The notes under the pieces were generated by a model. It was given only the letters and a program-made list of their open reading frames with translations, had not been told where the DNA came from and ran no database searches. Source: Escherichia phage VB-EcoM-WM. From it: 64,000 nucleotides of DNA. A program made the position numbers and the translations under genes. Positions within the stretch are counted from its first letter, which is position 1, and every line of letters begins with the position of its first letter. The stretch lies in the sequence record PQ014731.1. One strand, written 5' to 3'. Shown here in pieces: positions 38,640 through 40,995 of the stretch.

Positions 38640-38990
38640 TCAGTAGATGTTTTGTTTAATCTCTATTCCAAACTTTTTAAACGAGTCAGCAGCAAGCATG
38701 AATTTACGAGCCGCTGATGGGTTAGAAGTATGCACGAAAATCTTCACGTTGTCAACTACAGGAGGCTTACCAAATACAAATTTTTCCTCCAGCATAGACA
38801 GGCAATCGTACCCTTCAAATACCTCTCCAAGATCGTTGTCCATGTGCCACTCAGAAACGCGCCTGTAGAGCTTTCCCTTATCGTTAATAAAATCCATAAA
38901 CTCAGAGGAATTCTTTAGCCAAAGAGCATCTGGGAGCCCATAATTTGACGGATCTCTCAAGTCATCCAGCCACACAATCAACTTCTTCAT
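38640..38990 (-). CDS. hypothetical protein co-transcribed with Sir2
   Basis: 116 aa; KKLIVWLDDLRDP N-terminus; 4-nt overlap with RNA-ligase-like gene. Confidence 0.4.
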   Translation of the reverse strand: MKKLIVWLDDLRDPSNYGLPDALWLKNSSEFMDFINDKGKLYRRVSEWHMDNDLGEVFEGYDCLSMLEEKFVFGKPPVVDNVKIFVHTSNPSAARKFMLAADSFKKFGIEIKQNIY

Positions 38991-39922
38991 TGCATATAGT
39001 CCTCGTTGTGGAAATAGCAGTCAAGTATCTCACGGCGTTCCTGCTCCAGGAGGCAATTCCACACATCTTCTGTGTAGTTTCTACGAATGAAGTTTACCAT
39101 GCCGTAAAACTCTTCGTCAACACGTTTAAAGATATCATCATCCCAAATCTTCCAAGCTTTACCCCTCATTACGGCCTTCCGTGCCAAATAGTATGGAGAC
39201 TTGATCTTCAGCTGCAGATCATAAGGGTAGTAAGGCTTACGAATCATATACCCTTCACCTCTTGTTTCTGCAGCTAATTCTTTTGCATAGCTGAACGGAA
39301 TTTCACGCACAGTGTGAGGACGTTTTGCACCAAGGTATTTGGCAATCCCATCTAAAGCTGCTTCTGGTAGCATTATTCCAGAATCATTATATCTGCAACC
39401 TATCAAATATGCGCCATGATCTTCCTGAACAATATGCGGATCTGAAGGGTGACAAATTTCAAACATGAATGTCATGTTTTCATGACCCATAACCTTCTTG
39501 ATAAGATCTAAATTACCACATTGCTCCTGGATTGTTTCCTTTGCAAGGTTACAATATGGAGAATCAAGAGACCCTGTTGTTGAGAACAACAGTTCACCTT
39601 TGTGAGATGATACCACACCAAGGAATCCGTTCTTTTTCTCTACCGCCGTCACAAGCTTATTGTCAGGCAGGTTGGTGGAGTTTTCTCCCAAGTTAAACAC
39701 TTTTGTGAAGGGCCATGCCACAACATTTCCTTCATTACCGACAACAATGCCCCGGCACTCCAGTAAACGAGGGGACAAATGCCATAAATTGTTGTAAAAT
39801 ACTTTTCTGGCATATTTATAGATCTTTAACCCAAGATCTGGGTAATATCTACTGGTTACAAGACCTTTGTCAACTAGGTCGTCTGCATTAAAATACTTCA
39901 TCATACGTTCCTCATTTGTCAT
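38987..39922 (-). CDS. RNA-ligase-like nucleotidyltransferase
   Basis: Motif I-like VEKKNGFLG (KxNG) at the expected distance from the N-terminus; 311 aa; divergent to kinase/phosphoesterase genes. Confidence 0.5.
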   Translation of the reverse strand: MTNEERMMKYFNADDLVDKGLVTSRYYPDLGLKIYKYARKVFYNNLWHLSPRLLECRGIVVGNEGNVVAWPFTKVFNLGENSTNLPDNKLVTAVEKKNGFLGVVSSHKGELLFSTTGSLDSPYCNLAKETIQEQCGNLDLIKKVMGHENMTFMFEICHPSDPHIVQEDHGAYLIGCRYNDSGIMLPEAALDGIAKYLGAKRPHTVREIPFSYAKELAAETRGEGYMIRKPYYPYDLQLKIKSPYYLARKAVMRGKAWKIWDDDIFKRVDEEFYGMVNFIRRNYTEDVWNCLLEQERREILDCYFHNEDYMQ

Positions 39923-39964
39923 TTTGTCAGTCTATCCTGCCACACAAATAACCTAGTGTCAACA

Positions 39965-39993
39965 CTTGAAATTAACAAAACAGTTAGGTATAC
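39965..39993 (+). promoter_or_regulatory. sigma70-like promoter
   Basis: TTGAAA-17 nt-TATACT upstream of the kinase gene, at the strand switch. Confidence 0.45.
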
Positions 39994-40022
39994 TATCATT
40001 AAAATTAAAACGGAGTGCCGCT

Positions 40023-40433
40023 ATGTCTAAAATGCTATATATCGTGCGTGGTCTACCAGGGTCTGGCAAATCAACACTGGCAAATGCGCTATCTTTAGAA
40101 GGTCTGTATCCACATTTTGAGAACGACATGTTCTGGTACGACGATGACGGCAATTACAACTGGGATGCAAGTAAAGTAACACTTGCAGCAAAATGGTGCA
40201 AAGATAACGTAGAAGATATGATGCGTATGGGATACGACCGTATCGTGGTAAGTAATACGTTTACAAAAGAAAAACATGTGCAAGAATATGTTGACATGGC
40301 AATCAGTCATGGGTATAGTTATACCGTAATCGTGGTTGAAAACCGCCACGGTAATAAAAGCATTCATGATGTTCCAGACAGGGTCGTGGACCGTATGGAA
40401 CGCCAGCTTAAAAACTGCATTAAACTTAAATGA
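40023..40433 (+). CDS. polynucleotide 5'-kinase-like P-loop kinase
   Basis: P-loop RGLPGSGKSTLA close to the T4 Pnk kinase P-loop; start trimmed to MSKMLY after promoter. Confidence 0.55.
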   Translation: MSKMLYIVRGLPGSGKSTLANALSLEGLYPHFENDMFWYDDDGNYNWDASKVTLAAKWCKDNVEDMMRMGYDRIVVSNTFTKEKHVQEYVDMAISHGYSYTVIVVENRHGNKSIHDVPDRVVDRMERQLKNCIKLK

Positions 40434-40440
40434 GGAATGT

Positions 40441-40995
40441 ATGAAATACTTTGTAACAAGTGACACACACTTTCTCCACCAGCGGGTCATGGAGTTTGAC
40501 TCGTGTCAAAAACACAGATCTCAGTATGATCACAATCTTGACAGTATGAATGCTGGAATCATCACCGAGTGGAACTCTGTTGTGTCACCTGCAGACACTG
40601 TGTTCCACTTGGGGGATATTGCGTGCACTAATGATAAGAATATCAACAACTTACTTCCAGATATTCTAAATATGTTGAACGGACATATTATTCTTGTTCG
40701 TGGCAACCATGACACAAGGACGACTGTCAGAATTATGAAAGAGTTCTATCATGAGGTTGTAGATTATTACGAGTTTCGCCACAACAAGAATTTGATCTGT
40801 ATGAGTCATTACCAGTTTGCAACGTGGAACAGAAAGCATCACGGATCAGTCCAACTGTTCGGTCATGCTCACGGAACCACGCAACAGTTGTTTGGCAGGC
40901 AGTTTGATGTCGGTTGGGATGTGTGGGGGAGACTCTTACCATTAGAAGAGGCATACCGTATTGCAATGAGTCTTGCTATTGACAGCGGGGAGTAA
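40441..40995 (+). CDS. calcineurin-like metallophosphoesterase
   Basis: Metallophosphatase motifs DTHF..., GDI and RGNHD; start trimmed to MKYFVTSD. Confidence 0.6.
   Translation: MKYFVTSDTHFLHQRVMEFDSCQKHRSQYDHNLDSMNAGIITEWNSVVSPADTVFHLGDIACTNDKNINNLLPDILNMLNGHIILVRGNHDTRTTVRIMKEFYHEVVDYYEFRHNKNLICMSHYQFATWNRKHHGSVQLFGHAHGTTQQLFGRQFDVGWDVWGRLLPLEEAYRIAMSLAIDSGE

Follow-up and report, generated by a model that had tools for sequence, protein, structure and literature searches.

A predicted RNA healing-and-sealing cassette of separate ligase, kinase and metallophosphoesterase genes in an rV5-like coliphage

In the present study, we analysed a window of 64,000 nucleotides (the whole stretch of DNA considered here) from Escherichia phage VB-EcoM-WM (PQ014731.1). 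At positions 38987-40995 it carries a cassette of three neighbouring genes, encoding an RNA ligase of the T4 Rnl1 clade, a P-loop kinase resembling polynucleotide kinases, and a metallophosphoesterase of the aq_1665 family, and homologues of these genes lie together in many distant phages. We consider it probable, though well short of certain, that they form a healing-and-sealing pathway like that of T4 Pnkp and Rnl1, split over separate genes, which mends cut tRNA. Cleavage of tRNA is a common bacterial anti-phage strategy, used by PrrC, RloC, PARIS, Retron-Eco7 and Cas13a, and T4 Pnkp/Rnl1 is to our knowledge the only experimentally established repair answer of a phage; the cassette would be a differently built version of this type of repair. 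This reading is based on family and fold assignments, conserved catalytic residues, a translationally coupled gene pair and strong conservation of linkage. An initial annotation of the window had proposed the three open reading frames (ORFs) as separate genes with a phosphatase of the metallo type and not of the HAD type; Pfam and motif alignment confirm both points, and the ORFs are present as proposed, with the starts of the kinase, the phosphoesterase and probably the ligase corrected. The elements of the cassette are as follows.

38987-39922, minus strand: ATP-dependent RNA ligase of the Rnl1 clade, 311 amino acids (aa) from the longest ATG or 305 aa from the likelier ATG 39904 (Pfam RNA_lig_T4_1)
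39923-40022: divergent intergenic region between ligase and kinase, holding a sigma-70-like promoter
40023-40433, plus strand: standalone polynucleotide-kinase-like P-loop kinase, 136 aa (Pfam AAA_33)
40441-40995, plus strand: binuclear metallophosphoesterase of the aq_1665 family, 184 aa (Pfam Metallophos)

The window comes from a Vequintavirus, an rV5-like coliphage with a non-jumbo genome of 136 kb. Over 100 GenBank phages match segment 38600-41400 along its full length with 97% nucleotide identity, and the cassette was found in all rV5-like coliphages checked (at least 80% of the segment is present in 117 of the 119 matching GenBank records, which are rV5-like coliphages, Vequintavirus). 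The 10 kb around the locus are 95% identical to BASEL phage Bas54 (MaxBurger, MZ501093), and the proteins of the module are 96-98% identical to their Bas54 orthologues. GenBank relatives already carry the labels RNA ligase, polynucleotide kinase and phosphoesterase for these genes.

Outside this group, the cassette occurs in shuffled form in dozens of unrelated large metagenome phages. When viral contigs were scanned with the profile of the ligase, 79 loci were obtained, whose ligases are 33-89% identical to that of the window, nearly all of them 35-49%. A homologue of the kinase was present in 66 of these loci and one of the phosphoesterase in 57, usually within 2 kb of the ligase. Other genes of the window, taken as controls, were found far less often: DNA ligase in 25, the MazG-like gene in 13, Sir2 in 11, cREC in 10, and the helix-turn-helix (HTH) protein in none. 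The grouping is therefore not due to chance. When redundancy was controlled by clustering the ligases at 70% identity, 45 clusters resulted, 36 of them flanked by 3 kb or more on each side; the kinase was found in 28 of the 36, the phosphoesterase in 29, and both in 24. At least five gene orders were observed (phosphoesterase-ligase-kinase, kinase-ligase-phosphoesterase, ligase-phosphoesterase-kinase, and versions with cREC and Sir2 inserted), and contigs seeded by the kinase showed the same partners. All orders are co-directional except the rV5 type, in which the kinase-phosphoesterase pair is inverted; thus, the divergent arrangement described in the initial annotation is the layout here but is peculiar to rV5-like phages. 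Furthermore, PHROG 8238 (737 positions) matches the kinase at 2-109 and the ligase at 441-686, and this pattern indicates that a fused kinase-ligase version exists. Linkage in distant phages supports a shared pathway, and since it is kept despite sequence divergence and rearrangement, it is good evidence for a single one.

The ligase gene probably starts at ATG 39904, which has GAGGA 4 nt upstream, agrees with the N-termini of the homologues and is the start annotated in Bas54; in the AlphaFold model of the longer form, the first seven residues have a predicted local distance difference test (pLDDT) value below 50. Searches of the PDB with single sequences were uninformative for both the ligase and the kinase, and family profiles were needed; that of the ligase was built from 50 homologues, which also served for residue conservation. 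The ligase passed Pfam RNA_lig_T4_1 with 55.7 bits (cut-off 28.3), but scored only 38.9 bits against the NCBIfam equivalog of T4 RnlA, TIGR02308 (cut-off 242.25); it is thus a member of the clade and not an orthologue of T4 RnlA. Against the PDB, the profile found T4 Rnl1 as the sole significant family (E 5e-14). The KxNG motif on the minus strand, on which the gene had been recognised, is motif I, K96-K-N98-G99. Invariant in the 50 homologues are R57, K74, F76, K96, N98, G99, E155, E223, G224, K239 and K241, and the alignment to T4 Rnl1 pairs R57 with R54, K74/F76 with K75/F77, K96/G99 with K99/G102, E155 with E159, E223-G224 with E227-G228, and K239/K241 with K240/K242. The N-terminal elements specific to Rnl1 are also kept, as 'ECRG' (R57-G58) and 'PFTKVFN' (K74, F76), where T4 has 'ECRGI' and 'PMEKFFN'. 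The AlphaFold model (pLDDT 92) is closest in Foldseek to T4 Rnl1, archaeal Rnl3 and the ligase domain of fungal Trl1 (E about 1e-11 to 1e-12). RNA ligases are the best matches by both sequence and fold, and DNA ligases fall far behind (Foldseek E of 1e-5 or worse), so that a DNA ligase or a capping-enzyme homologue, considered as alternatives at the outset, does not fit. By profile and model, the protein belongs to the T4 Rnl1 clade and is predicted to be an RNA-sealing enzyme, not a DNA ligase. Motif V is where the profile alignments with T4 Rnl1 stop; beyond it, the model has a helical region of about 65 aa with four short helices (243-305).

The kinase starts at ATG 40023, with GGAG 8 nt upstream, and encodes 136 aa; the TTG at 39966 further upstream is not the real start. 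It passed Pfam AAA_33 with 42.7 bits (cut-off 27) and matched a PHROG of polynucleotide kinases more weakly (E 5.7e-10). Over 7,900 members of its family, standalone proteins of about 130 aa, occur in metagenomes. The P-loop G10-L-P-G13-S-G15-K16-S17-T18 is present; G15, K16, T18, D35, Y45, C59, N78, T79, E106, N107, R108 and H109 are among the invariant residues of the family, and H56 and W58 are nearly invariant. The family may resemble the eukaryotic N4BP2/YLPM1 kinase domains, which is a lead only, and a literature search for N4BP2 together with phage found nothing. In the PDB, the profile gave its longest matches with Pnkp1, CthPnk, T4 Pnk and PSTK, a tRNA kinase. The general base of T4 Pnk, Asp35, contacts the 5'-OH (PMC2831316), and its counterpart in the alignment is the invariant D35. 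The model (pLDDT 90) gave Foldseek TM scores of 0.72-0.77 to Clostridium thermocellum Pnk, T4 Pnk and PSTK, as expected from its description as a T4-Pnk-like P-loop kinase on the plus strand, whereas gluconate, UMP-CMP, adenylate and shikimate kinases reached only 0.46-0.60. The model places the fold clearly closer to the kinases of polynucleotides and tRNA than to those of small molecules, which speaks against the nucleotide kinase that had been named as the alternative. The protein is a kinase domain alone, lacking the HAD/DxDxT 3'-phosphatase domain; thus, the name '3'-phosphatase, 5'-polynucleotide kinase', common in GenBank, is wrong here.

The phosphoesterase gene begins at ATG 40441, 7 nt past the kinase stop and preceded by GAGGA, and encodes 184 aa. 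It passed Pfam Metallophos with 28.5 bits (cut-off 21.5), and the five metallophosphoesterase motifs (D8-x-H10, G58-D59, G88-N89-H90, H123 and G141-H142-x-H144) are invariant in 39 homologues, with D91 of GNHD nearly so; the calcineurin-type assignment on the plus strand is therefore sound. The best PDB match of the family profile was Aquifex aq_1665 (1XM7), over the full length and with E 3.6e-29, followed by GpdQ, YfcE, MJ0936 and the DNA-repair 'Nuclease MPE'. Enzymes of the ApaH type appeared only at E 0.03, and no chain of the CthPnkp phosphatase was found up to E 1, which places the phosphoesterase outside the lambda-phosphatase/PrpE clade to which Pnkp belongs. Thus, the likeness to bacterial Pnkp and the T4 system that had been drawn for the whole module holds for the ligase clade and the kinase fold, whereas the phosphoesterase has only its superfamily in common with the Pnkp phosphatase. 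Judged from its motifs, it likely shares the chemistry as well, and is a candidate 2',3'-cyclic phosphodiesterase and 3'-phosphatase. The metallophosphoesterase of CthPnkp heals tRNA ends with 2',3'-cyclic phosphate, which T4 Rnl1 then seals (PMC1920235, PMC2190708).

The three-gene module of the initial annotation stands in so far as the trio is linked across distant phages. However, it had missed a cREC gene and probably also a Sir2 gene. The features that surround the trio are listed below.

38640-38990, minus strand: cREC, standalone divergent receiver-domain protein, 116 aa (Pfam cREC_REC)
37870-38631, minus strand: Sir2-family NAD-dependent enzyme, 253 aa (Pfam SIR2, 94.6 bits)
35230-36513, in the same leftward gene block, 2.5 kb away: ATP-dependent DNA ligase (Pfam)
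43931-44654, plus strand: tRNA cluster of six genes (ARAGORN, Rfam)

The ligase stop overlaps the ATG of cREC as ATGA, and cREC is translationally coupled to the ligase. The protein scored 53.3 bits with Pfam cREC_REC (PF20274; cut-off 27), and its hallmarks WLDDLRDP, DNDLGE, VH(T/S)SNPSA and K96 are invariant in 11 homologues; it conserves the REC acidic pair D9-D10, a phospho-acceptor Asp (D51/D53), (T/S)88-S89 and K96. At least one GenBank relative bears the label 'cyclic-phosphate processing receiver domain-containing protein'. The Sir2 gene, which probably belongs to the module, adjoins cREC, the kinase or the ligase in 11 of the 79 related loci. In contigs like Klebsiella phage KP12, all genes lie on one strand in the order phosphoesterase-x-x-ligase-cREC-kinase-Sir2-DNA ligase, beside NAPRTase-like and PRPP-synthetase-like genes. 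In related phages, the ligase and kinase genes stand beside this NAPRTase-like and PRPP-synthetase-like pair, which resembles the NAD+ reconstitution pathway of phages, and sometimes beside a Macro gene; the pair was not seen in positions 1 to about 47,400 of the window, as checked against the annotation of a relative.

We also checked the neighbourhoods of cREC at 13 loci in bacterial genomes. In Treponema parvum, cREC directly follows the RNA ligase RtcB. A metagenome-assembled Cyclobacteriaceae genome has the order RtcB-x-x-cREC-phosphoesterase-RtcB, where the phosphoesterase is of the aq_1665 family (E 4.5e-30), and in a genome related to it cREC adjoins RtcB without the phosphoesterase. 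One further locus has a WYL regulator upstream, and the remaining neighbours scanned at the 13 loci were unrelated. Pairing with Rnl1 in phages and with RtcB in bacteria means that cREC, and in one case the phosphoesterase, is associated with RNA ligases of two unrelated folds; the bacterial clusters are candidate cellular RNA-repair operons. RtcB is an RNA-only ligase that depends on a 3'-phosphate. Thus, a role of cREC as a simple phosphate remover is hard to reconcile with this partner, which hints at the opening of cyclic phosphates. The domain was named by Iyer et al. (2021), who predicted that it processes 2',3'-cyclic phosphate or cADPR, reported cREC operons with RNA ligases, and regarded calcineurin-like enzymes as possible 3'-phosphatases in a few jumbo phages (PMC7824862). 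By its conserved residues, the phage cREC is likewise a predicted cyclic-phosphate or phosphate-processing enzyme.

In the pathway that we propose, the 136-aa kinase would phosphorylate the 5'-OH, and the phosphoesterase would remove the 2',3'-cyclic phosphate or 3'-phosphate and leave a 3'-OH. Where cREC is coupled to the ligase, in rV5-like and KP12-like phages, it may assist by opening the cyclic phosphate; such a division of labour between the two proteins is our proposal. The Rnl1-type ligase would then reseal the break through ligase-AMP and AppRNA intermediates. The substrates are likely tRNAs cut by host anticodon nucleases or toxins, and from the action of T4 Pnk and Rnl1 against PrrC we infer by analogy a role in counter-defence. 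On hosts without the relevant nuclease, the cassette should be dispensable, as is T4 pnk.

The tRNA genes that had been noticed near the module are indeed close by: the six genes lie 2.9 kb downstream of the phosphoesterase and on the strand of the kinase. They encode tRNA-Arg(TCT), tRNA-Tyr(GTA), tRNA-Ser(TGA), an unusual tRNA-Lys(UUU), tRNA-Thr(TGT) and a tRNA with the anticodon CAT; Bas54 annotates the 97-nt tRNA as tRNA-Lys (AAA) and the CAT tRNA as tRNA-Ile. The amino-acid specificities of this set, Arg, Tyr, Ser, Lys, Thr and the CAU anticodon, are attacked by known tRNases. Among the 79 loci, 39 have tRNA genes within 10 kb. The gene at 44400-44498 on the plus strand was reported by ARAGORN as 'tRNA-???', and its anticodon loop UUUUUAA gives the anticodon UUU (Lys). 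Its variable region is enlarged by an insert of about 25 nt that holds a 5-bp hairpin, like a class II tRNA and unusual for tRNA-Lys, and the insert-bearing form is conserved in an 89%-identical relative. tRNA-Lys(UUU) is the classic target of PrrC, and the odd shape could affect recognition by the nuclease.

A saturated transposon map of Bas54 on E. coli K-12 is given in the HIDEN-SEQ preprint (10.1101/2025.11.20.689424), with the following values.

bas54_0207, Sir2: 48 of 51 TA sites hit, Non-essential
bas54_0208, cREC: 16 of 21 TA sites hit, Intermediate
bas54_0209, ligase: 56 of 60 TA sites hit, Non-essential
bas54_0210, kinase: 33 of 36 TA sites hit, Non-essential
bas54_0211, phosphoesterase: 26 of 27 TA sites hit, Non-essential

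Dispensability in K-12 fits a conditional role in counter-defence, as for T4 pnk, and is not proof of it. The approach is able to expose such a conditional need, because in the same study one comparison with a clinical isolate shows significant depletion of pnk of the T-even phage Bas37 (log2 fold -1.90; 10.1101/2025.11.20.689424).

Several points weigh against tRNA repair as the function of the cassette. Only about 65 aa stand in place of the C-terminal all-helical domain of T4 Rnl1, which comprises about 120 aa and confers tRNA specificity. Equivalents of T4 Pnk Arg38 and Glu57, which form the salt-bridge network of the acceptor site, are not evident in the profile alignment of the kinase, so that its acceptor binding may differ. 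The phosphoesterase, by its profile, is not of the lambda-phosphatase/Pnkp clade, and its family has no characterised member; our literature search for aq_1665 and 1XM7 gave no functional study. Furthermore, in 15 of the 79 loci the kinase and ligase occur with no detectable phosphoesterase, and the frequent neighbours are related to NAD (Sir2, Macro, NAPRTase and PRPP-synthetase-like genes), which could mean a different chemistry. A literature search on rV5/Vequintavirinae and RNA ligase found no functional study and no paper on the cassette. The Bas54 ligase, kinase and phosphoesterase are undepleted in one clinical-isolate comparison, probably of K-12 with CFE303, where the accessible values are log2 fold +0.43, +0.31 and +0.40, respectively (10.1101/2025.11.20.689424). 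Bas54 is also still restricted by the HEPN RNase LbuCas13a, strongly enough for counter-selection; thus, the cassette does not neutralise every HEPN RNase.

One alternative, which we regard as unlikely, is that the kinase and phosphoesterase mainly heal DNA ends (5'-OH/3'-phosphate nicks left by host nucleases) for the nearby DNA ligase, or act on DNA and RNA both, with the RNA ligase as only one of two sealing partners. The same leftward block contains the DNA ligase (35230-36513), a homologue of which occurs within 10 kb in 25 of the 79 loci and also in the kinase-seeded contigs, T4 Pnk is active on both DNA and RNA, and among the closest of the weak NCBIfam and PDB matches to the phosphoesterase are PdeM and 'Nuclease MPE', which belong to DNA-repair clusters. 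However, the linkage to the RNA ligase (66 and 57 of the 79 loci, usually adjacent) is much tighter than that to the DNA ligase (25 of 79, usually at 2-5 kb), and the bacterial cREC pairs with RtcB, a ligase of RNA only. The NAD-related neighbours suggest another explanation, that small molecules are the substrates of the kinase, phosphoesterase, cREC and Sir2, in a conflict of phage and host over NAD+ and nucleotide signals (cyclic or ADP-ribose signals, NAD+ salvage), while the RNA ligase is near only because early counter-defence genes cluster. In related contigs the kinase stands beside NAPRTase, PRPP-synthetase-like, Macro, Nudix and Sir2 genes, the weaker PDB neighbours of the phosphoesterase (GpdQ, YfcE and MJ0936) are small-molecule phosphodiesterases, and the jumbo-phage survey proposes cADPR or cyclic phosphates for cREC (PMC7824862). 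Against this, by fold the kinase is clearly closer to kinases of polynucleotides and tRNA than to those of nucleosides or nicotinamide riboside, the triad is kept in many lineages without Sir2 and cREC, and the kinase-ligase fusion PHROG 8238 exists; we consider a small-molecule role quite improbable.

Housekeeping is less probable still. Here the cassette would serve maturation or splicing of phage tRNAs, for example of the insert-bearing tRNA-Lys, or RNA recycling, which would agree with the tRNA clusters often close by, with the insert of about 25 nt in the tRNA-Lys(UUU) of the window, and with the homology of Rnl1-type ligases to the tRNA-splicing ligase Trl1. However, the insert folds as a class-II-like variable arm, we identified neither a splicing endonuclease nor a bulge-helix-bulge motif, the phage can do without the genes in K-12, and in half of the related loci tRNA genes are absent within 10 kb. 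Finally, the GenBank label 'RNA ligase and tail fiber protein attachment catalyst' and the label of PHROG 562 suggest attachment of tail fibres, as by T4 gp63. This label was transferred from T4, and tail assembly offers no rationale for linkage to the kinase and phosphoesterase. The Bas54 ligase tolerates insertions at 56 of 60 TA sites and is thus not needed for infective virions, so that an essential role in tail-fibre attachment is ruled out, and we hold any such role to be extremely unlikely.

A different reading of the same locus takes the ligase-cREC pair, followed by Sir2, as an NAD+-linked route of RNA repair that would be new for phages. In this route, cREC might use HAD-like aspartyl-phosphate chemistry to open 2',3'-cyclic phosphates to a 2'- or 3'-phosphate, or might process an ADP-ribose cyclic phosphate; Sir2 might use NAD+ to clear the 2'-phosphate or to mark the RNA or the host nuclease, echoing Trl1/Tpt1; and the phosphoesterase might be the RNA 3'-end phosphatase, as the first aq_1665 member with a function. 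We give this reading a small chance only. The T4-like healing-and-sealing pathway for cut tRNA remains the explanation that we prefer.

The ligase and kinase genes are the first on each side of the divergent promoter region. A promoter scan found a sigma-70-like promoter, TTGAAA-17-TATACT, at 39966-39994 on the plus strand, ahead of the rightward kinase-phosphoesterase operon; for the leftward ligase operon, none was found in the intergenic region at the thresholds of the scan. Over positions 1-64000, the GC skew changes from negative to positive at 40 kb, and the switch falls exactly at the point of divergence between ligase and kinase, where a leftward block of early genes and a rightward block with tRNAs, spanins and terminase start. 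The switch at 39905-40022 may mark an origin or merely the orientation of the genes. In Bas54, an insertion-free intergenic region of about 2 kb was considered as the divergence point and rejected, since it lies between bas54_0134 and bas54_0135 and not between bas54_0209 and bas54_0210. Leftward of Sir2, Pfam and PHROG assign a MazG-like pyrophosphohydrolase, two small ORFs and the ATP-dependent DNA ligase.

Directly 3' of the phosphoesterase lies the gene of the HTH protein (41043-41393, plus strand), which has weak matches to DUF6945 and HTH_36 and is labelled 'replication initiation protein' or 'transcriptional regulator'. Its orthologue bas54_0212 received about 10-fold fewer transposon reads than its neighbours (13.6 versus 140-400) and is 'Intermediate' in the preprint (10.1101/2025.11.20.689424); thus, the HTH protein matters for fitness. 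The approximately 660 bp between this gene and the next (41394-42054) contain no convincing ORF and no Rfam match, and relatives annotate only small ORFs there. PADLOC returned nothing for the ligase, phosphoesterase, cREC and Sir2 and only weak P-loop matches for the kinase; thus, the cassette is not a known defence system. In the region 35-46 kb, Rfam found only tRNAs; matches to 'Plastid-ycf2', tRNA-Sec and mascRNA were rejected as sub-threshold hits on tRNA genes, those to ycf2 being reverse complements. Elsewhere in the window, a Ribosomal_S30AE homologue (ribosome hibernation factor; 5999-6316, minus strand; Pfam 48.3 bits) is a further translation-directed gene of the same phage, and a relative annotates two adjoining genes as RaiA and sigma-54 modulation factor. 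Of the records that match 38600-41400 at 90% nucleotide identity or more, 18 are named 'Campylobacter phage', and 16 records give Campylobacter jejuni as host, which suggests mislabelled hosts or contamination.

If the cassette is active, it would provide the first function for the aq_1665 phosphoesterase family and for the cREC domain, and compact standalone end-healing enzymes. It would also help to explain differences in host range among the Vequintavirinae, which are candidates for phage therapy. Because a saturated transposon library of the 95%-identical Bas54 exists, the hypothesis of counter-defence is directly testable.

The kind of system is known from T4 Pnkp/Rnl1 and bacterial Pnkp/Hen1, its genes are annotated in GenBank, and its outline has appeared in published comparative genomics; the three-gene form that is widely conserved has, so far as we found in the accessible literature, not been described as a unit. 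In the accessible part of the survey by Iyer et al., we did not find the triad of Rnl1, Pnk-like kinase and aq_1665 phosphoesterase described as such (PMC7824862). As here, cREC shares an operon with an RNA ligase in the systems described there and has Sir2 as a neighbour, and calcineurin-like enzymes are proposed as alternative 3'-phosphatases; however, that work is a purely computational survey of jumbo phages, whereas the present locus belongs to a 136-kb non-jumbo coliphage. Aquifex aeolicus aq_1665 (1XM7) is a structural-genomics protein of the same family as the phosphoesterase, and its gene is not known to be linked to RNA repair.

Bacterial Pnkp (Clostridium thermocellum Pnkp/Hen1 and Capnocytophaga Pnkp1) combines the three activities that are predicted here and uses a metallophosphoesterase to remove the 2',3'-phosphate, and the phage kinase matches CthPnk best by fold and Pnkp1 by profile. 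However, bacterial Pnkp is one polypeptide, whereas the cassette consists of three genes on two strands; its phosphatase is of the lambda-phosphatase clade and its ligase of the Pnkp type, in contrast to the aq_1665 family and the Rnl1 type; and no Hen1 methyltransferase was found among the genes of 35-43 kb scanned by Pfam or annotated in relatives. With T4 Pnkp (PseT) and Rnl1 (RnlA), which counter PrrC, the cassette shares the ligase clade with identical catalytic residues and, in the kinase, the fold, the P-loop and the Asp general base. It also shares, as predicted from its genes, the logic of 5' phosphorylation, 3' dephosphorylation and sealing, and like the T4 enzymes it is phage-encoded and non-essential on standard hosts. 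The differences are that the T4 kinase is fused to its phosphatase, whereas the 136-aa kinase stands alone; that T4 has a HAD/DxDxT acylphosphatase domain where the cassette has a metallophosphoesterase together with a REC-fold protein; and that the C-terminal domain of the ligase is about half the size of that of T4, with a TIGR02308 score far below the cut-off.

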